NCBI GenBank assembly: GCA_964510655.1
Contig: CAZEAY010000002.1
Location: 26,613 to 90,612 of the forward strand
Source of the DNA: an uncultured Candidatus Saccharibacteria bacterium
GTDB taxonomy: Bacteria > Patescibacteriota > Minisyncoccia > Phycocordibacterales > XYD1-FULL-46-19
Direction of reading: 5' to 3'
Length of the DNA stretch: 64,000 bases
The translations under genes were made by a program, and so were the position numbers. Shown piece after piece: positions 12,825 through 61,969 of the stretch. Under the pieces are notes generated by a model. The model was given only the letters and a program-made list of their open reading frames with translations. It searched no databases and was not told the DNA's origin. The first letter of the stretch is position 1. Each line of letters starts with the position of its first letter.

Positions 12825-12833
12825 TGCTATAAT
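12825..12833 (+). promoter_or_regulatory. Extended -10 (TGcTATAAT) that would start transcription into the recJ leader element
   Basis: TGnTATAAT lies about 12 nt upstream of the conserved element beginning at 12845. Confidence 0.4.
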
Positions 12834-12844
12834 CATATATTAGC

Positions 12845-12987
12845 ATGAATCCCGTGGTAGAAAATCGGCCTCGTTGGGAATAAGTCTTCGGGAAACAGTA
12901 TGAAATTAATCAGTAATTACTAATTTAATAAAGATGGCATAAAAGAATCCCACCAGGATAATGCCATTTTTCACTAACGGGATGAAA
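12845..12987 (+). repeat. Conserved ~140-nt leader element, copy A (upstream of and overlapping the recJ start). It includes hairpin ATGGCAT-N20-ATGCCAT (12934..12967) and the motif CACTAACGGGATGAAA.
   Basis: It shows about 75% nucleotide identity over its whole length to 26188..26330, upstream of rplC. This includes a perfect 7-bp palindromic stem whose 3' arm contains an ATG. Confidence 0.6.
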
Positions 12988-25551: not shown

Positions 25552-25995
25552 CTAATCACTGATATTAAATATCGCCATAATTAATCTAGCTAAAAGTCCA
25601 CGTTTTTTCTTTGGAGCTTCTTTTTTTTCTATTCCACCACCTCCTCCATTCATACTTTGGTTGAGAGAAATTTGATTATTTATATTAATACCACTAGAAT
25701 CAGAATTTTTGTCTTCAGGTTTAGATTCTGGTGTGATTCCTCTGATTTCACCTTTCAATTGTTCAATTCTTTCTCGCCTTTCTCCTTCTAGGTTTGTTTG
25801 TGGTATCTCCTCTGTCTCCATGTGTCCATCGGGGTTTTCTGGAGGGGTTAGATTATCATTTTCAGGATTTTCTTGTTCTGTTTCGGTCGCATTTTCAGGT
25901 TTGGCGAGACTGCTCATGTCAACTATCTCTGCCCCATCTTGCCCCTCTTCTTTTACTTCTTCTTGATGGGGTTTAAAATTTTCCGCTGAATTCAT
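25552..25995 (-). CDS. Acidic, low-complexity (Glu/Pro/Asn-rich) hypothetical protein with a basic-hydrophobic C-terminus
   Basis: It is a 147-aa ORF with a strongly biased acidic composition. It sits on the opposite strand, wedged between rpsJ and rplC. Confidence 0.4.
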   Translation of the reverse strand: MNSAENFKPHQEEVKEEGQDGAEIVDMSSLAKPENATETEQENPENDNLTPPENPDGHMETEEIPQTNLEGERRERIEQLKGEIRGITPESKPEDKNSDSSGININNQISLNQSMNGGGGGIEKKEAPKKKRGLLARLIMAIFNISD

Positions 25996-26187
25996 ATTGA
26001 TTGTGGTTAGCTAATTCATTAAATTATAGCATGATAGTCCTTCTTGTCATCAAGGAAGGGGATATAAAGATATCGTAAGAGTTTGGTGTTTGACTTTTTT
26101 CGGTTATTTGATAGTATTATCCCAAGCTCGCTTAGGGCTCTTGTTTTTTGTACGGAGCACCTAATACCATTTAAATAAAGCATTTCT

Positions 26188-26330
26188 ATGAATCCCGTGG
26201 TATTAAATGGCATCGTTGGGGACATAGGAAAGGGTGGAGCTGAATCAATTAAGTAAATTAACAAATTTTAATATAGATGGCATAGGAGAGTCCCAACCGG
26301 ACAATGCCATTTTCCACTAACGGGATGAAA
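26188..26330 (+). repeat. Conserved ~140-nt leader element, copy B (upstream of and overlapping the rplC start). Hairpin ATGGCAT-N20-ATGCCAT at 26277..26310.
   Basis: Collinear ~75% identity to 12845..12987, ending in the identical ...AATGCCATTTTyCACTAACGGGATGAAA. Confidence 0.6.
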
Positions 26331-29339: not shown

Positions 29340-29807
29340 ATGTTGTTGGAAGCTTCACCCGTCATGATGGAGAATAAACCAAATATTTTTCGTCGCTGGG
29401 CGAGTCTCATCACTCTTTTTATTTTTATTTCGATTTTTAGTTTTGCCGCCTTTAATTATTTTTCTGGTTCTTCTCTAACAGCTGGTTTGTTTAATACCTC
29501 GGCTTATTGTAGTGATGATAAAGGAAATTCGGCGGTTATTCTGTATAACGGTATGCCGGTTGTGAATGTTGTCACTAAGCTAGTTGGAGAATCATCTACT
29601 ATCAAAAAAATTACTTACACTGATTATTTGGGAGAACTAAAAATTGTAATGGATCCCGTAGCGGCTGATCCTATTTTGGTTACTAATATAAAATCTGCCA
29701 TGACTAAAGCGGTCCAAAATTTAACAAAAGAGCAGTCTCTTAAGATAATTGAATTTTCGGCTACTAAATTTGTGACTGCTCCCTTTAAGTGCAAGTACAC
29801 TAAATAA
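29340..29807 (+). CDS. Hypothetical membrane-anchored protein (155 aa), upstream partner of the giant secreted protein
   Basis: An N-terminal TM helix (ITLFIFISIFSFAAFNYF), then a soluble domain. A 3-nt gap separates it from the next ORF, which suggests coupling. Confidence 0.45.
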   Translation: MLLEASPVMMENKPNIFRRWASLITLFIFISIFSFAAFNYFSGSSLTAGLFNTSAYCSDDKGNSAVILYNGMPVVNVVTKLVGESSTIKKITYTDYLGELKIVMDPVAADPILVTNIKSAMTKAVQNLTKEQSLKIIEFSATKFVTAPFKCKYTK

Positions 29808-29810
29808 TTT

Positions 29811-32800
29811 ATGACTAAAATTAAGTATTTTTTATTGAGTTTCCTGCTATTGTTTCCGTTTTTTGTTTCTGCCGTTGATGTTTTTACCACTAGTTACTTA
29901 AAGGAAAAATATCGACAGACTTATGCCACTTGTGGAGTTAAAGCTGTGCCTGGGAGCGATACTGTCCATGATTTGGGTCCCGTTGACAGTTATGGTCAAT
30001 GTTCTGGCTCCTATCCCGACGGATTGGCCGCCGACGCTTATTTGCCTGGTTGCAACCCAATAGCAGGAGAAACCTGGGGGCCTTGGGAGGGTCAGCTATT
30101 CCATGAAAAATCCGGGGCCACTTATCGTCCAGAAGAAATACATCAAGGTTCTACTGCTTATTGTGGTGTGGGCGTAATTAAGTGTGGGGAAGGCTTTAAT
30201 TTCAATGGGGTCACTATGACTGGTGATTATTGTAAGGCTCCGTACATCAAAGATGGTTTTTTTAGTAAGGATGGACAATATGTTGATGAATACTGTATTG
30301 ACTATCAAGCTCCGACTTTTTTAGGTAAATATATTACAGATGGAACAAAAATGGTTCAGTCTTGTTGCACTTCTTTAGCTCACCATGAGACTCACACTTT
30401 TCCTATTATCGGAGATGTAGCCAATGTATTGAGCCAGTGGAACTTGCCGCTGGCTGGAAATTTGGCCGCCGGGGTAAACAGTGCTTCACCGGTAGATTTG
30501 GTTAATAAGGCTAGTTACGATGAATGCTGTAAGGCTCCTGACCAATGTTATGAATTTGGTTTTAATGTGATTAACGCTAGCTTCGCCTTAATAAATCCTC
30601 CATCCACAGGGGCGGCCATCTTAATGACAATGGCTAATAGCATCTTAAATTCGGCGACGGGAGAAATTGGTAAGTATAAAAATCAAGTCTGTCGTTCAGC
30701 TGAACAATCTCAAAATGATCAAACTGCCGCCTCTTATATTGATGATGCTGCCACAATTACCAAACTAGTTAACACTTCTGGGGTAACAGATGTTTTAGCT
30801 AATATAACTTTCTATTTAAGAATTTTACCTACTTATAATAAATGTGGTGGTGGTTCTGCAAAAAATAATTCACCCAAGACTGGTCTCCTAGCCACAACGC
30901 TTGCTTCTAGTGATACTGTCTCAGGTTTCTCATTTACTCCCGAGGCTGCGGCTGGGGGTAAGAGCTGTTCCTTTAAGGTGGTAAAAGGTGGAGTGGATAC
31001 AAACCAACGTGTTTATGTTGCCAATAATTATGTTTTTTTGGATAGTCCAACTTTGAGTTTGAATTCTTCAAAACTCTTTAACAATCAGCCTGGTTACTCC
31101 ACCTCAATGTTAGAAAGAGCTAGGCAGATGGTTAGTCCAGCCATTTACACCCCTAATAAAACTTCTTGGTATTGGAATGGAATTAAGTTTGTTCAAGTAG
31201 ATGATCCTCTGACAGCCTTAAATTTGAATGTTATTTATGCTGGTGTCTCTGCGACTTCACCCGATTTCTTTAATTGTAATGTCAATGATATTCCGAATGT
31301 CGGTCATAGTAATTTGTTTAAAACATTTTTAGCCACTGCTCCAAGTTTATCAATGTGTCCAGTCATTAATTATGGTGATGCTAATAATGACAATCTTAAT
31401 AATTGGACGGACGTTCAGTGTTATCTAAATTTGTTAGGGGATAAGAGTTCCCCCGCCTGTAATCCAGATAAAAAATTAATGGCCTTTAATGACAATAGCG
31501 GGACTGTTATTACTGTCAATGACCTTATGAGAGAGTTGCATGTTATGTCTGACCCCAATCAGCTTATTTATTACAGTTCTGTTAAAAAATATTTAGCTGA
31601 GTCACCTTATAATACAAACTTGCAGTCATGCTTGTTTGGTCGCAATCCAAAAAATAATACATCTTTATTTTCTCCAGCCTTGCCAGATGTTGTGTATAAG
31701 GCGGTCTGCGGAAATAAACTAATTGAAGCTGGTGAGTCGTATGAAACCTGTCCCGCTGATGTGCCGGCACCGGTTGTTAATCCTACCCTCACCTTGATTC
31801 CCTCATCTGGCCTCACTCTTTCTCGGGGTGGAGTGCAGGTTTCAGCAACCACTACTCAATCTCTAGCAAATAATTCCGCAATCTCTTTAACTGCCACTAT
31901 ACCAGCTTCAACTTATTCATCTCGAGCTAGTTCGGTCTCTAAAAAAATCACCTGGACAGGAGTTGATCAAACTATTTGTCCACCTAAGACTGTTGATTGC
32001 AAAATAACCAGTGGAACAGTTTCTTGTTTAGCTCTTACTTCCACTTGTAACTTTACCCTTACTAAAAACACAACAATCCAGCCCAAGTTAGTTCAAATGG
32101 TTGGTATTCAGATTCCTGATACTCCTGCAGTTACTAATTTCACCGCCCCCACTTTTGACTATGGTGCTGGTCAACCATCTCATCGTCTCTGGTTAACCTT
32201 CAATGCCACCGGCTCAGTCAGTTCAATCACCAAGGTCCCTGGTTATGATAAATGCTTTAGCTTCACTGCTTCAACTGATACTGCCTCAGCCGCTTGTCCT
32301 CTTAACCAGCCTATTAAACCTGGTACTAAGTGTGGTATCTACTTACAGGCTAGTAGTGATCGTTGTGTCGTAGCAGTTAAATATCTAACTGGTACTAACA
32401 CGACTAATACTCGTTACTTTGAACAAATCTTCTACAATTCCACCCCTACCACTACGGGGAAAGATACGATTAAGGATCGGGGGACTCGAGCTCCGTCGCC
32501 AGATGATTTTATTCCAGTGGTCCTAACTTCTCCTGTGCCAACGCCAACACCGATTCCTGCGCCAGCTCCTGCTACAAGTCCAACTCCAGTCGTTAATTAC
32601 GCCCTCTCCCTCATTCGTCCTACTACTGGATCTCTAGCTTTCTACTCTTCTCTCAAACTTGTTGCCGCTGATATTACCACCTCTCTGCCAGCTGGCACTA
32701 AGGTTGATCTAAAAGTGAAACGCTCTCCAACTACTCAATCGGGAAGTTCCAGAGCCACTGGTTACAAACTTCGCGTGAACTGGGCTGGCACTTCTTGTCC

Positions 32801-33368
32801 AGAATCAATCACAGACTGCAGTGTTTCACCAGCGGCCATCACTTGTCCCGCGATTGAAACTACTTGTCTCTTTGACTTAACTAAAGATACTCGTGTAGCT
32901 CCTTCATTTACAGCAACACCCGAGTATCCCATCGATACCACCCCTAAAACCCTAACCCTCTCCGTTAACAACCAATCTACTGGCTACATTATCGGTAGCA
33001 AAGACATGGCTGCTAATCCCGTAGAATTCAACTGCGGTCAGGTGGAAGAAATTGGTAATGCTAAGATCTGGCCTGGCACAGCTTGTTCCCAAACCTATCC
33101 TCATGGAACAATTATCACTTTAGTGGCTTCTGTCCCCGGTAATCTCTCTGATGGTAAATCACTCACTCGTGGCACCTTCTCTGGCTGGGGGAGTAATTGT
33201 ACCTCGATGACCACTTGGACTGATATTACTGGTAAATCCTATCAAGCCTGTCAAATCAAACTTGAGGCTAACAAAACCATTTCTGCTTCTTTTACGGGAC
33301 CGACTTCGTGGTTGCTCCGGCCGTTTATCCAGCTCGGGAATATTTGGAACTCATTGTGGTCACGGTAG
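29811..33368 (+). CDS. Giant (1185 aa) Cys-rich secreted protein with internal 4-Cys repeat modules, a Pro/Thr linker, and a C-terminal domain shared with ORF 49365..52550
   Basis: It has the signal peptide MTKIKYFLLSFLLLFPFFVSA and many paired Cys. It has two internal repeats (CPPKTVDCKITSGTVSCLALTSTCNFTLTKNT and CPESITDCSVSPAAITCPAIETTCLFDLTKDT). A linker PVPTPTPIPAPAPATSPTPV follows. The C-terminal ~120 aa (NQSTGYIIGSK...FNCGQVEEIGNAKIWPGTACSQTYPHGTIITLVAS...) is homologous to the C-terminus of the 1061-aa protein. Confidence 0.7.
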   Translation: MTKIKYFLLSFLLLFPFFVSAVDVFTTSYLKEKYRQTYATCGVKAVPGSDTVHDLGPVDSYGQCSGSYPDGLAADAYLPGCNPIAGETWGPWEGQLFHEKSGATYRPEEIHQGSTAYCGVGVIKCGEGFNFNGVTMTGDYCKAPYIKDGFFSKDGQYVDEYCIDYQAPTFLGKYITDGTKMVQSCCTSLAHHETHTFPIIGDVANVLSQWNLPLAGNLAAGVNSASPVDLVNKASYDECCKAPDQCYEFGFNVINASFALINPPSTGAAILMTMANSILNSATGEIGKYKNQVCRSAEQSQNDQTAASYIDDAATITKLVNTSGVTDVLANITFYLRILPTYNKCGGGSAKNNSPKTGLLATTLASSDTVSGFSFTPEAAAGGKSCSFKVVKGGVDTNQRVYVANNYVFLDSPTLSLNSSKLFNNQPGYSTSMLERARQMVSPAIYTPNKTSWYWNGIKFVQVDDPLTALNLNVIYAGVSATSPDFFNCNVNDIPNVGHSNLFKTFLATAPSLSMCPVINYGDANNDNLNNWTDVQCYLNLLGDKSSPACNPDKKLMAFNDNSGTVITVNDLMRELHVMSDPNQLIYYSSVKKYLAESPYNTNLQSCLFGRNPKNNTSLFSPALPDVVYKAVCGNKLIEAGESYETCPADVPAPVVNPTLTLIPSSGLTLSRGGVQVSATTTQSLANNSAISLTATIPASTYSSRASSVSKKITWTGVDQTICPPKTVDCKITSGTVSCLALTSTCNFTLTKNTTIQPKLVQMVGIQIPDTPAVTNFTAPTFDYGAGQPSHRLWLTFNATGSVSSITKVPGYDKCFSFTASTDTASAACPLNQPIKPGTKCGIYLQASSDRCVVAVKYLTGTNTTNTRYFEQIFYNSTPTTTGKDTIKDRGTRAPSPDDFIPVVLTSPVPTPTPIPAPAPATSPTPVVNYALSLIRPTTGSLAFYSSLKLVAADITTSLPAGTKVDLKVKRSPTTQSGSSRATGYKLRVNWAGTSCPESITDCSVSPAAITCPAIETTCLFDLTKDTRVAPSFTATPEYPIDTTPKTLTLSVNNQSTGYIIGSKDMAANPVEFNCGQVEEIGNAKIWPGTACSQTYPHGTIITLVASVPGNLSDGKSLTRGTFSGWGSNCTSMTTWTDITGKSYQACQIKLEANKTISASFTGPTSWLLRPFIQLGNIWNSLWSR

Positions 33369-40776: not shown

Positions 40777-40888
40777 AAAATTGTGAGTCCAGTTTGAAAT
40801 AATAGGAAAAAGTAAATGAGAAGTTGTATTATGAAAGTAGCTAATGGTCGAGGGGTAAGTTTCTATCAGCAAATAAATTTCTAACGGG

Positions 40889-42160
40889 ATGAACAAATTT
40901 TTTGATAAGTTAAATATAATCTTCCGTGATAGTAATCTCCGCCGAAGAATTTTGGTGGTTTTAGGCGCTTTGGCTGTTTTTCGTTTTGCCGCTTCGGTGC
41001 CAATTCCCGGGGTAGATATTTTACGATTAGAAAATTACCTGTCAGGAAATAATTTCTTAGGTATTTTTGATATTTTGTCTGGAGGTGGTCTGTCTAAGTT
41101 GTCTGTCATGATGCTTGGAGTCGGTCCATATATTACCGCTTCGATTATTATGCAACTTTTGACTCTAATTTTCCCTTCTTTGAAAGAGCTTTATCATGAA
41201 GAGGGCGAGGCTGGTCGTCGCAAAGTGGCTCAATATTCTCGTTTGATTGCCATTCCTTTGGCGGCTTTTCAGGGTTATGCTTTTCTTACTCTTTTGGCCC
41301 GTAATGGTGTTCTTGGACAGTTGACCACTGGCGGGATGCTTTTGAATATTTGTTTGGTGGTGGCTGGTTCAATGCTTTTGATGTGGATTGGTGAATTAAT
41401 TTCTGAATATGGTTTGGGCAATGGTGTTTCCTTGATTATTTTTGCTGGAATTGTGGCTCGAGTACCATCGGCTGTTCAAGAACTATATCTCGGTTTTGAT
41501 CCATCTCAATTACCGTTATACGTCGCCTTTATTGTTGTAATGGCGGTGGTTATTGCGGGAGTGGTAGTTATTACTGAAGGAGAAAGGCCAATTCCGGTTA
41601 CTTATGCTAAGCGGGTACGGGGGATGAAGGTCTATGGGGGAGTTTCCACTTATTTACCTATTCGGGTTAACAACGCTGGGGTGATGCCAATTATTTTTGC
41701 TCTCTCAATTTTAATGTTTCCTCAAATGCTGGCCACTTTTCTTGGAGCCAGTTCCAACGCTATTTTAGTTGGAATTTCCAAGTTTTTTGCGCTAATTGTC
41801 GGTAATATGTGGGTCTATGGTTTTATTTATTTTATTCTTGTCTTTGTCTTCACTTATTTCTATTCGGCCGTTACTTTTGACCCAGAAGCTGTTTCAGAAA
41901 ACTTGCAGAAGTCCGGTGCTTTTATCCCGGGGGTTCGTCCTGGTCGCCCAACAGCTGAATTTATTGCTAATATTCTTTATCGTCTAACCCTTATCGGAGC
42001 TCTATTTTTGGGAGCCATCGCGGTTCTTCCTCTCGTCTTACAAGGAGTGACAAAAATAAGTGCCCTAGCTATTGGTGGTACCTCTCTCTTGATTGTAGTG
42101 TCAGTGGCGATTGAATTTATTAAACAGATCGAGGCGCAGATCTCGATGCGAGAATACTAA
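40889..42160 (+). CDS. secY: Preprotein translocase subunit SecY
   Basis: A 10-TM SecY architecture. The ATG is preceded by CTAACGGG as in recJ and rplC. Confidence 0.92.
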   Translation: MNKFFDKLNIIFRDSNLRRRILVVLGALAVFRFAASVPIPGVDILRLENYLSGNNFLGIFDILSGGGLSKLSVMMLGVGPYITASIIMQLLTLIFPSLKELYHEEGEAGRRKVAQYSRLIAIPLAAFQGYAFLTLLARNGVLGQLTTGGMLLNICLVVAGSMLLMWIGELISEYGLGNGVSLIIFAGIVARVPSAVQELYLGFDPSQLPLYVAFIVVMAVVIAGVVVITEGERPIPVTYAKRVRGMKVYGGVSTYLPIRVNNAGVMPIIFALSILMFPQMLATFLGASSNAILVGISKFFALIVGNMWVYGFIYFILVFVFTYFYSAVTFDPEAVSENLQKSGAFIPGVRPGRPTAEFIANILYRLTLIGALFLGAIAVLPLVLQGVTKISALAIGGTSLLIVVSVAIEFIKQIEAQISMREY

Positions 42161-56858: not shown

Positions 56859-57241
56859 GGGGATGATTGGCCTAGACAATTAATTTCCCTTTTGTGTGCA
56901 TGTCGAAGATTCTAACAAGATTCGTAATATATGTTAGGAAAAAGAAGTGCAAAAACTTCAAAGGGGATAGCATCCCCTTATATGCCAGCTTTCGCTTTAG
57001 CCTAAGCTGACCGTCCGTTCATTTGGATGCTCGATAGATTTGAACGGGTGTCATAAACTGCGAGCTAGGATTTGAGAATGTTTCGACTCAACCCCAAAGC
57101 CACTTCGGTGGAATAGAAACTCGACTAGTTAGTATTTTGGCGGCTTAGAGCTAGCTAGTTTAAAACCCCTAAACCTCCTACACATGTAGATTCACAAAAG
57201 ATTATTATTTGCACGTGGGTTCGATTCCCACCATCTCCACA
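56859..57241 (+). ncRNA. ssrA: Transfer-messenger RNA (tmRNA, ssrA)
   Basis: The 5' GGGGAUG pairs with the 3' CAUCUCC to form an acceptor stem with a G3-U70 wobble, followed by discriminator A. A T-arm GUGGGUUCGAUUCCCAC is present. An internal reading frame ends ...PAFALA-TAA at 57003-57005 (tag-like). It lies directly downstream of smpB and is about 383 nt long. Confidence 0.85.
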
Positions 57242-57282
57242 AAAAAAGTCCGCGAAATGTATTCGCGGACTGTGAGTTTTTG
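57241..57282. terminator. Terminator after ssrA (aaaaaaagtccgcgaaatgtattcgcggactgtgagttttt)
   Basis: A GTCCGCGAA/TTCGCGGAC stem with a T-tract. It also serves the convergent response-regulator gene. Confidence 0.8.
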
Positions 57283-61196: not shown

Positions 61197-61896
61197 TATT
61201 TATAAGCGAGTCGGGGAAACTCCTCTGGAAGTGATTGAACGAATCCGGGTTAAGTTCCCGGATTTTTCAACTGAAAAAATGACTTATGCTGGGCGGTTAG
61301 ATCCAATGGCTGAAGGAGTGCTAGTCGTGTTGGTAGGGGAAGAATGTAAGAATAAGGAGAAGTATCTTGGTTTGGATAAAGAATATGAAGTGGAATTTTT
61401 GCTAGGAGTAGGGGCGGACACAGGAGATGTGATGGGTTTGGCACAATTATCTGAGGTAAAAAAAGAATTTACCTCATCAGAACTTGTCTCAGTTTTAGAT
61501 TCTTTGATTGGTAAAAAGAAACAAGTTTATCCAAAATATTCTTCCCCTATATTGGCTGGTCAGTCTGGAAGTTTTAAAGAAGTAGAAATAAAAAGTCTTA
61601 AATTTTTGAATCAGCAAAAAATTTCATCTAGCGATCTTTTAAACGAAATAAAGAGAAAAATAGAAATGGTAAATGGAGAATTTCGTCAGGCGGAGATTGT
61701 TGAACGATGGATAAAACTTTTAACCAAGGAACATTTTTTTACCTTGGTTAAATGTCGAGTATTTTGTACGAGCGGTACTTATATTCGCGTTCTAGCTGAA
61801 GATTTGGGTAATAAACTGGGAACAACTGCTTGCGTCTATTCTCTAAAAAGGATAAGGGTGGGTGATATTAAAGATGGTGATTGTTTGAGATTTTAG
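61171..61896 (+). CDS. truB: tRNA pseudouridine(55) synthase TruB
   Basis: It has the catalytic-Asp context GRLDPMAEGVL. It overlaps the ftsH 3' end, so the true start may be slightly downstream. Confidence 0.7.
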   Translation: MALKPKSFNIYKRVGETPLEVIERIRVKFPDFSTEKMTYAGRLDPMAEGVLVVLVGEECKNKEKYLGLDKEYEVEFLLGVGADTGDVMGLAQLSEVKKEFTSSELVSVLDSLIGKKKQVYPKYSSPILAGQSGSFKEVEIKSLKFLNQQKISSSDLLNEIKRKIEMVNGEFRQAEIVERWIKLLTKEHFFTLVKCRVFCTSGTYIRVLAEDLGNKLGTTACVYSLKRIRVGDIKDGDCLRF

Positions 61897-61969
61897 TGCA
61901 TGCGCCTGGACTCGAACCAGGGACCAGTCGTGTATAAGACGACGGCTCTACCAACTGAGCTACGCATGC
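61897..61969 (-). tRNA. tRNA-Ile with anticodon UAU (decodes AUA). CCA is not encoded.
   Basis: The reverse complement folds as a canonical cloverleaf: acceptor GCATGCG/CGCATGC, D-arm GCTC-AGTTGGTA-GAGC, anticodon stem GTCGT/ACGAC with loop C-U-UAU-A-C, and T-arm CCTGG-TTCGAGT-CCAGG. Confidence 0.8.

Follow-up and report, generated by a model that had tools for sequence, protein, structure and literature searches.

Palindromic mobile elements abut the start codons of recJ and rplC in a Patescibacteria contig and belong to a metagenomic family with candidate GIY-YIG nuclease partners

The closest described counterparts of the elements reported here are the Correia elements (NEMIS) of Neisseria, along with ERIC, RUP and BOX. 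They are non-coding units of 100-155 nucleotides (nt) with inverted repeats of ~20-26 bp and a short target duplication, and many copies lie beside unrelated genes. They are co-transcribed, and their paired ends become a long hairpin in the mRNA. Correia hairpins are substrates of RNase III and alter mRNA stability. Here we describe elements of similar build in a 64-kb stretch of DNA from an uncultured Candidatus Saccharibacteria bacterium (GenBank assembly GCA_964510655.1, contig CAZEAY010000002.1; 64,000 nt, hereafter the window), where one copy precedes recJ and another precedes rplC, the gene for ribosomal protein L3. Correia elements duplicate TA and lie at varied distances from genes in either orientation, whereas the elements described here have a single orientation, end at position -1 of the host gene and duplicate its ATG. 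Their candidate autonomous partner is a GIY-YIG nuclease gene, not a gene for a DDE transposase. The family appears to be undescribed, as we found no Rfam family for it and no publication that deals with GIY-YIG inverted-repeat elements, with short derivatives of such elements or with insertion at start codons.

The two copies lie collinear at positions 12845-12987 and 26188-26330 of the window, where an earlier note, made from the sequence without database searches, had placed a duplicated element of ~140 nt. A global alignment of the two has 111 identical columns out of 150, in line with the note, and the mean column identity is 80% when they are aligned by MAFFT with some flank included. 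Conservation between them is perfect over the first 15 nt, the last 16 nt and both arms of the inner hairpin. It is conservation of nucleotides in non-coding sequence, as the note had it, and the only coding sequence common to both copies is ATGAAA. The flanks are at the AT-rich background (26 of 70 columns matching over the upstream 60 nt, 36 of 68 over the downstream 60 nt), which argues against the duplication of a segment together with coding sequence that the note had kept in mind. The left-end 15-mer and the right-end 16-mer each occur exactly twice within the window, and a 39-nt pattern describing the hairpin had no match in 100 shuffles. By the homologues of its RecJ, the genome falls within Patescibacteria, near Paceibacteria, Vogelbacteria and Nomurabacteria. 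Rfam 15 contained no match to the window copies at gathering score or at E up to 10, and none to five related loci. A covariance model of the family found no additional copy in the window and none across ~70 kb of close relatives.

Comparison with related loci shows that both copies are insertions. We used four loci for recJ (L002, L003, L005 and L006; RecJ 70-79% identical to that of the window) and five for rplC (L038-L042; L3 79-91% identical). The element is missing, to the nucleotide, from all of these loci, and the flanking promoter and coding sequence align. At the empty recJ site of L006, the promoter TTATTATGCTATAAT, as in the window, is followed by 12 nt and then by ATGAAAAAATGG. The region upstream of rplC in L038 matches the window base for base up to ...GCATTTTC-ATGAA-ATTCATTCTTGG, and the empty site reads ...GCATTTTCATGAAATTCATTCTTGG. 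At each site the window has a surplus of exactly 137 bases, TCCCGTGG...CTAACGGG plus a second ATGAA. Given this exact surplus, the ATGAA at both ends is a direct repeat of the host start codon and the next 2 nt, and each window copy consists of a 132-nt insertion and a duplicated ATGAA. The true start codons, at 12982 for recJ and 26325 for rplC, agree with the N-termini of homologues.

The window copies belong to a family that is widespread in Patescibacteria. Metagenomes were scanned for exact matches to the right-end 20-mer only (ATGCCATTTTNCACTAACGGG), a pattern that leaves out the ATG, and 50 loci from groundwater, lake and other samples were retrieved. In all 50, the next three bases are ATG. 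The open reading frames (ORFs) that follow are real, unrelated genes, and where they carry Pfam domains these begin at residues 1-17 counted from the abutted ATG (PilM, HPF, GreA, TrpRS, M50 protease, transketolase, XseA and S41 protease). Other host genes were recognized by their N-terminal sequence, including pgk, dnaX, priA, rplX and atpH. The further copies that the earlier note had proposed to look for were thus present in metagenomes; a scan of genome contigs with the left-end variant of the window (ATCCCGTGGT...CTAACGGGAT, with GTGGT where the family consensus has GTAGT) returned only four chance matches in unrelated phyla, and four scans of viral contigs gave chance matches or nothing. 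Nearly all retrieved loci have a left end of the form ATG-N-N-T-CCCGTAGTAGAAAATGGCAT, which lies 126-145 nt upstream in 38 distinct copies, and the consensus ends of the family are CCCGTAGTAGAAAATGGCAT ... ATGCCATTTTTCACTAACGGG. All copies found are oriented with the host gene; among them, both the start-codon position and the sense orientation are exclusive. The element has a body of 126-145 nt and no ORFs apart from the upstream ones, which vary in length and come to their end within the AT-rich interior. A run of four type IV pilus genes in locus L090 (4808-10768, minus-strand view), namely pilM, two pilB/pilT-like genes and one other, has a family member on each start codon, and pilus hosts also occur in L045, L050, L056 and L088.

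The direct repeat varies from copy to copy with the host gene. The left ATGNN is identical to the ATGNN of the host gene in 30 of the 38 copies, and positions 4-5 of the repeat match in 31 of 38, compared with a mean of 16.6 and a maximum of 27 in 10,000 permutations (p < 1e-4). Flanking pentamers include ATGAA, ATGGA, ATGAG and ATGAC. The copies of a single sequence subfamily at three genes each have their own repeat (ATGAA, ATGAG and ATGGA), which indicates that the repeat derives from the target, like a target-site duplication. The sequence ATGRR occurs ~592 times on one strand of 150 kb, mostly away from gene starts, and at this frequency the target sequence alone cannot account for the exclusive position on start codons. 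Either integration is directed to gene starts, or insertions elsewhere are rapidly lost. Copies at orthologous genes of diverged genomes are 83-87% identical, compared with 34-41% at four-fold degenerate sites of the host genes. This high identity fits selection on the element, but it could also reflect recent repeated insertion, since copies at different genes are just as similar.

We considered whether the element could be a translated in-frame insert, as Rickettsia palindromic elements (RPE) are within proteins, and rejected this. The ATG-to-ATG lengths fall into all three residues modulo 3 (10, 12 and 16 copies), 28 of 38 are not divisible by 3, and stop codons come early in the upstream ORF. 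RPE and the palindromes derived from IS200/IS605 do resemble the present family as small palindromes tolerated at or in genes. IS200/IS605 derivatives, in contrast to it, have no target duplication, a fixed 4-5-nt target at the left flank only and subterminal hairpins that are alike at the two ends. In the present family the pentamer at the flank differs between copies and occurs on both sides, and we found no left-end hairpin in the window copies.

Some elements encode only a nuclease and agree with the short ones in their ends and insertion geometry. In L067, a short copy lies in direct tandem with a 318-nt element, ATGAAT-CCCGTAGTAGAATTTCAG ... CTGAAATTTCACTACGGG-ATGAAA, the last ATG being that of infC. 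Its interior is an intact 92-codon ORF whose own ATG lies 25 nt inside the element. The 91-residue product matches the Pfam GIY-YIG domain (PF01541, E 4e-15) and has 514 homologues of ~90 residues, the named ones mostly from the Parcubacteria group, Paceibacterota, Zambryskibacteria, Magasanikbacteria, Nomurabacteria and Minisyncoccia. The element in L093 reads aaacATGA-CCCTGTAGTGAAATTTTAGC...GCTAAAATTCTACTACCGGG-ATGATAATC, at the true start of a family-11 glycosyltransferase gene, and that in L100 reads TGGTAGAAT-N9-ATGA-CCCAGTAGTGAAATTTTAG...CTAAAATTCTACTACTGGG-ATGAAAATT, at a PBP1A gene; another is in L106. All four full-length elements measure 315-318 nt, and each precedes a different host gene. 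Full-length and short elements share CCCGTAGTAGAA on the left (12 of 12 nt) and TTTCACTA(A)CGGG on the right (13 of 14 nt), and the ATGA(A) repeat with abutment to the host ATG is present in three of the four full-length elements (L067, L093 and L100). Some homologues of the nuclease are called with an N-terminal read-through of the left repeat (MNPVVEFWPI-MFYTYVL, ..DPVVKFQLI-MFYNYIL). The GIY-YIG nuclease is the only protein encoded by the elements; between such ends, in the loci searched, there is no other ORF and no transposase of a recognised class (DDE, HUH, serine or tyrosine recombinase). These elements are probably the partners of the short ones. As a candidate origin of the short interior, the 3' end of the nuclease gene (GTCGAA..TTTAAC) was rejected, as the likeness is suggestive in ~8 copies and does not exceed that of shuffles.

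Homing endonuclease genes of the GIY-YIG type, free-standing or within introns (I-TevI and the seg and mob genes of T4-like phages), offer a partial parallel. Like the full-length element, they are small selfish units whose sole gene is a nuclease, which sit at essential genes and are expressed from host signals. Unlike it, they carry an added DNA-binding domain, target one cognate allele through homologous repair, and have no inverted repeats or target duplication; here a bare 91-residue catalytic domain is combined with inverted and direct repeats at many unrelated genes. The nuclease scores only 22.7 bits against the model for group I intron endonucleases, for which the cut-off is 56. The nearest solved relatives are the UPF0213/COG2827 proteins (PDB 1ywl and 1zg2), which are single-domain GIY-YIG proteins of ~95-107 residues and of unknown function, and the match to them is weak (E ~4e-4).

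GIY-YIG ORFs have also been reported in insertions in rRNA genes of the candidate phyla radiation (CPR), which reportedly bear no resemblance to group I or group II introns and are scattered rather than homing (Tsurumaki et al. 2024, PMC11270868). The phylum and the kind of small GIY-YIG ORF are the same, while the insertions lie in rRNA genes, and the available portions of that paper do not describe their ends, a target duplication, a link to start codons or short derivatives. We observed one insertion that matches those reported, near the 5' end of a 16S rRNA gene in L059 (2540-2850). It encodes a different GIY-YIG ORF, 51% identical in protein sequence to the nuclease described here, and differs from our elements in its ends, as it is flanked by the inverted repeats CCACACCTC/GAGGTGTGG and by ..TATG / CATG... 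In L086 (1082-1350), 13 nt separate the end of a GIY-YIG ORF that lacks recognisable inverted repeats from the left ATGGAT of a short element, which in turn precedes a transketolase gene. Together with the tandem in L067, it appears that a start-codon site can be hit repeatedly.

The ends of the element are imperfect inverted repeats of ~20 bp which, as RNA, would form 19 pairs over 20-21 nt, interrupted by one A-C mismatch and by a bulged A that is conserved. In this closing helix, 97.1% of cells are paired across 36 copies; it stops at position -1 of the host AUG, and the mean minimum free energy of the full-length fold is -38 kcal/mol. An inner hairpin shares its 3' strand with the closing helix, so the two pairings are mutually exclusive. 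In both window copies the hairpin has the 7-bp stem (ATGGCAT/ATGCCAT) and 20-nt loop noticed earlier, to which we add a distal 4-bp stem. The distal stem is AUCC/GGAU in the recJ copy and GUCC/GGAC in the rplC copy, which is one compensatory change of the kind the earlier note had suggested looking for. Its idea that this hairpin sequesters the start codon does not hold, since the hairpin contains only a spurious upstream ATG and the real AUG abuts the different, ~20-bp helix.

Across the family, (U)GCCAUUUU is the partner of the inner copy of the left arm, consensus AAAA(A/G)UGG(C/U)(A/G), and the two enclose a distal stem that varies by subfamily (AUCC/GGAU, GUCC/GGAC, CUUC/GAAG, GCCCA/UGGGC, GCUCU/AGAGC, CGCUCUUU/AAAGAGCG and others). 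The loop of the inner hairpin ranges from 7 to 25 nt. When the 3' strand was held fixed and the upstream part was dinucleotide-shuffled, the inner hairpin (mean -11.9 kcal/mol) was more stable than the shuffles, with a mean z-score of -2.24 and 19 of 36 copies below -2, and the rest of the interior showed no gain (mean z -0.35). Variation in the inner 5' arm mostly keeps the pairing: A and G opposite U occur 25 and 11 times at one position and 18 and 10 times at another, and C and U opposite G occur 17 times each. A disruptive G-to-A change is seen only 5 times despite the AT-rich genomes. This variation points to selection on the fold of the sense strand, as RNA or single-stranded DNA. We found no universal interior motif and no conserved unpaired core among the copies that would indicate a ribozyme or riboswitch. 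An extension of the closing helix, by pairing of the segment 3' of the left arm with the hairpin loop, was also rejected. Its geometry recurs in many copies, but self-pairs show no clear advantage over cross-pairs (mean 6.3 and 5.4), only 3 of 36 copies exceed the 95th percentile, and the full-length fold does not improve on folds with a shuffled interior.

An ORF of at least 9 codons, M-(N/D/S)-P-V-V-E-N-G-I..., begins at the left ATG; it always runs over the 5' strand of the helix and usually stops in the AT-rich interior. The leader peptide of the earlier note survives in the altered form of this short ORF, which starts at the duplicated original ATG. The native promoters remain immediately 5' of the left ATG. 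Shine-Dalgarno-like motifs are not enriched at gene starts in the window and loci L043-L092 (32 of 285 ORF starts, compared with 85 of 592 random ATGRR sites), and a -10-like box 4-12 nt 5' of the ATG is present at 64 of 285 ORF starts and 27 of 592 ATGRR sites. On these counts, many host genes are probably leaderless. Targeting of leaderless genes by the element was rejected, as the box is present at 11 of 34 insertion sites, not a significant difference from the 64 of 285 ordinary starts on the same contigs; a nearby -10 box is a property of these genomes and not of the element.

We propose tentatively that these features couple translation of the host gene to its original signals. In the mRNA, the paired ends would form the helix of ~20 bp up to position -1 of the AUG, masking 20 nt and blocking initiation. 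Translation of the upstream ORF from the retained original ATG would cross the 5' strand and melt the helix, the freed 3' strand would refold into the inner hairpin, and UCACUAACGGG-AUG, that is the last ~14 nt and the AUG, would be left single-stranded. Translation of the host gene would thus stay coupled to its native initiation signals. The arrangement resembles translational attenuation of the ermC type and transcription attenuation of the trp type, where a short upstream ORF also covers one strand of two exclusive helices, one of which hides the start region. It differs from that attenuation in that here there is no evidence of a sensing codon or a stalling peptide, the leader start is the duplicated start codon of the host, and the element is mobile and lies before unrelated genes. 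An alternative fate of the helix may be cleavage by RNase III, as for Correia elements, and another alternative, which concerns the two window copies only, is a weak outward promoter.

Sister subfamilies, with ends CCCGTTAGA...TCTAACGGG and lengths of 100-200 nt, were found through weak matches to the covariance model and a scan for TAACGGG. They also end on start codons, namely those of aspS, an epimerase gene, ndk, metG and three pilus genes in one cluster, and ATG follows directly at 13 of 40 further TAACGGG sites. A probable degenerate member of such a subfamily precedes secY in the window, and the octamer CTAACGGG-ATG that had been noticed there as a third occurrence is its right end. We hold this assignment, made from the sequence of its ends, with moderate confidence. 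Its left end is GTGAGT-CCAGTTTGAAAT and its right end AAATTTCTAACGGG; the arms CCAGTTTGAAAT (40789-40800) and ATTTCTAACGGG (40877-40888) pair at 10 of 12 positions and lie 77 nt apart, and its fold is no better than that of shuffles.

Taken together, the window copies are very probably mobile insertions of this family. The explanation that we favor for the whole, with a probability of roughly 0.7, is that the short elements are non-autonomous derivatives of the MITE type (miniature inverted-repeat transposable element), moved in trans by the nuclease-encoding form, and, less certainly, that their effect on the host gene is relieved as in the RNA model above. By insertion at a start codon, the element would be transcribed, and its full-length form translated, from the signals of the host gene, and the duplication of the ATG would return an intact start codon to that gene. 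More speculatively, the bare 91-residue GIY-YIG nuclease may be the mobility enzyme of an unrecognised minimal inverted-repeat transposon of ~317 nt which integrates specifically at start codons, the host gene being re-expressed through an RNA switch or through termination and reinitiation at the regenerated ATG.

Several observations weigh against this explanation. No such nuclease gene lies within the 64-kb window, the GIY-YIG protein could be cargo with no part in mobility, and the likeness between the interiors of short and full-length elements is not above shuffled controls. One full-length element of the four, in L106, stops 13 nt short of the host ATG and lacks a clear direct repeat. 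The direct repeats are 4-6 nt long rather than of fixed length, which is unusual for a classical transposase, and orthologous genes carry copies that resemble one another no more than those at different genes do. As for the RNA model, the coupling step is drawn only from sequence and predicted folds, and the upstream ORF of most copies ends ~100 nt short of the gene. Because the search pattern fixed the right end, its apparent invariance and the missing two-sided covariation in the closing helix are uninformative. In the GGCAT subfamily, UUUUU follows directly 3' of the inner hairpin, whose stem base is A-U rich, and the hairpin could act there as a terminator or transcription attenuator; scans of the window did not flag the hairpin, and sister subfamilies have no U-run after the hairpin.

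A different account, which we regard as unlikely, is that the element is a host-owned cis-regulatory leader RNA with a two-state fold (a riboswitch, protein operator or leader-peptide attenuator) and that mobility is the route by which a regulon was wired. Such an RNA would explain the two exclusive pairings of the 3' strand in nearly every copy, the stability of the hairpin beyond shuffles and its maintenance through wobble-compatible changes, the upstream ORF that always lies over the 5' strand, and the terminator-like hairpin with U5 in one subfamily. Conservation is also much higher among the copies than at synonymous sites in their host genes. However, the element is missing at orthologous sites in close relatives, its hosts have no common function, and its ends are common to nuclease-encoding elements. 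It also has no conserved unpaired core, an interior no more structured than shuffles, no Rfam match, and sister subfamilies in which the U-run is absent. The earlier note had considered a cis-regulatory leader shared by recJ and rplC, possibly under a common regulator. An ancestral leader of this kind is not supported, given the precise empty sites, the dozens of unrelated hosts, and the inverted repeats with a copy-specific direct repeat.

Movement of a conventional MITE by an unsampled DDE-type insertion sequence, for example an IS1380-like one, seems less likely still; the GIY-YIG genes would then be passengers or unrelated occupants. Terminal inverted repeats with a short duplication are the classical DDE signature, and the IS1380 family, which we take to have CC... 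ends and a 4-5-bp duplication, would presumably fit the 4-6-nt repeats and CC ends seen here. To our knowledge, UPF0213-type GIY-YIG proteins have no mobility role, inverted repeats or start-codon context, which also counts in favor of a DDE enzyme. On the other hand, the complete 315-318-nt units contain the nuclease ORF only, and a search of ~460 kb of loci for a larger autonomous element between such ends gave only combinations of separate copies. We also know of no DDE family with start-codon specificity.

We see only a slim chance that the element is a mobile promoter cassette whose outward promoter drives the downstream gene. Both window copies have ATGGCA-17 nt-GATAAT or GACAAT, with transcription expected to start ~12 nt before the ATG, and a promoter scan flags the recJ copy. 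The spacing of the hexamers, however, equals the hairpin loop length minus 3, and with the range of loop lengths across the family most copies have a non-functional spacing; in many cases the -10-like hexamer is without the T at position 1 or the A at position 2, and the native promoters persist. The mobile part of this idea, which the earlier note had also listed, is therefore retained, and the promoter part applies weakly to the two window copies and not to the family. Finally, segmental duplication or gene conversion within one genome, suggested by the presence of only two good copies in the window at 75-80% identity, is refuted by the 50 exact right-end matches at unrelated genes in unrelated metagenomes and by flank sharing that ends at ATGAAA.

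Table 1 Features of the element copies in the window and of the native recJ promoter.
Feature	Position	Strand	Remarks
Native recJ promoter, -10 box with TG extension (TGCTATAAT)	12825..12833	+	11 nt 5' of left ATG; outside element; read from sequence
Left direct repeat ATGAA, recJ copy	12845..12849	+	Original recJ start codon and 2 nt
Upstream ORF, recJ copy	from 12845	+	12 codons, MNPVVENRPRWE
Left terminal inverted repeat, recJ copy (TCCCGTGGTAGAAAATCGGCCT)	12850..12871	+	5' strand of closing helix; partly degenerate relative to consensus CCCGTAGTAGAAAATGGCAT
Variable AT-rich interior, recJ copy	12872..12931	+	Structure not beyond shuffled controls
Inner hairpin, recJ copy	12932..12968	+	Arms ATGGCAT 12934-12940 and ATGCCAT 12961-12967; dG -12.1 kcal/mol, z -3.65
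Distal stem of inner hairpin, recJ copy	ATCC 12947-12950, GGAT 12956-12959	+	Loop CACCA
Right terminal inverted repeat, recJ copy (ATGCCATTTTTCACTAACGGG)	12961..12981	+	3' strand of closing helix; holds spurious in-frame ATG at 12961
Right direct repeat ATGAA, recJ copy	12982..12986	+	True recJ start codon (12982-12984) and 2 nt
Left direct repeat ATGAA, rplC copy	26188..26192	+	Opens upstream ORF MNPVVLNGIVGDIGKGGAESIK
Left terminal inverted repeat, rplC copy (TCCCGTGGTATTAAATGGCAT)	26193..26213	+	
Inner hairpin, rplC copy	26275..26311	+	Arms ATGGCAT 26277-26283 and ATGCCAT 26304-26310; z -2.87
Distal stem of inner hairpin, rplC copy	GTCC 26290-26293, GGAC 26299-26302	+	Loop CAACC
Right terminal inverted repeat, rplC copy (ATGCCATTTTCCACTAACGGG)	26304..26324	+	
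Right direct repeat ATGAA, rplC copy	26325..26329	+	True rplC start codon and 2 nt; L3 homologues begin MKFILGTK
Probable degenerate sister-subfamily member (CCCGTTAGAAAT...ATTTCTAACGGG)	40783..40888	+	Abuts secY ATG at 40889

The right arm of the element misleads gene callers. An in-frame ATG seven codons upstream of the real start had been pointed out earlier, and gene callers do pick this ATG inside the right arm (12961-12981 and 26304-26324; also in P0001, L001 and P0243). The miscalled start gives a false MPFFTNG extension at the N-terminus, with RecJ of 596 instead of 589 residues and L3 of 214 instead of 207, and an HPF homologue is likewise miscalled with 128 instead of 121 residues. 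This extension is likely a systematic error in public protein sets.

The ribosomal-protein cluster of the window has further features. Upstream of rplC, 26090-26150 contains a promoter-like TTGACT-16-TAGTAT with a TG extension, followed directly by a small hairpin and a U-run (AGCTCGCTTAGGGCT CTTGTTTTTT). This block is kept as a whole upstream of rplC in L038, L039, L040 and L042, which lack the mobile element, and possibly serves the ribosomal-protein operon as a leader or attenuator. The cluster is interrupted between rpsJ and rplC by a gene for a 147-residue protein with no Pfam match (25552-25995, minus strand), whose counterpart differs in relatives. Between rpsS and the ribosomal-protein genes that follow are two ORFs of 155 and 1185 residues (29340-33368), an arrangement that L038 shares. 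Elsewhere in the window are a tRNA-Ile with anticodon UAU (61896-61969, minus strand) and a transfer-messenger RNA (tmRNA) with the tag AKTSKGIASPYMPAFALA (56859-57242). In the metagenomic loci, we also observed perfect palindromes of 65-80 nt (CCCCGTAGTAGATTTTGGCAT...ATGCCAAAATCTACTACGGGG) in L092 (775-850), L073 (3963-4028) and L070 (10698-10777), and nested twice in L077. They share the terminal CCCGTAGTAGA and lie off start codons with varied flanking repeats of 3-6 nt, and one is inside a larger element.

If our explanation is true, the insertion site of these elements would be set by a translational landmark, the start codon, and not by a DNA motif alone. This would raise the question of how integration at the level of DNA finds start codons, whether through a nuclease preference for ATGRR combined with strong selection, or through promoter-proximal targeting in genomes with many leaderless genes. 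Few classes of enzyme move inverted-repeat elements, and a GIY-YIG nuclease would be added to them, within an element that barely exceeds its 91-codon gene. Several per cent of the genes in some Patescibacteria would be translated from behind a 20-bp helix, among them essential ones such as the rplC operon, trpS, dnaX, pgk and infC. The family would then be a natural case in which to study how translation begins where Shine-Dalgarno sequences seem to be little used.

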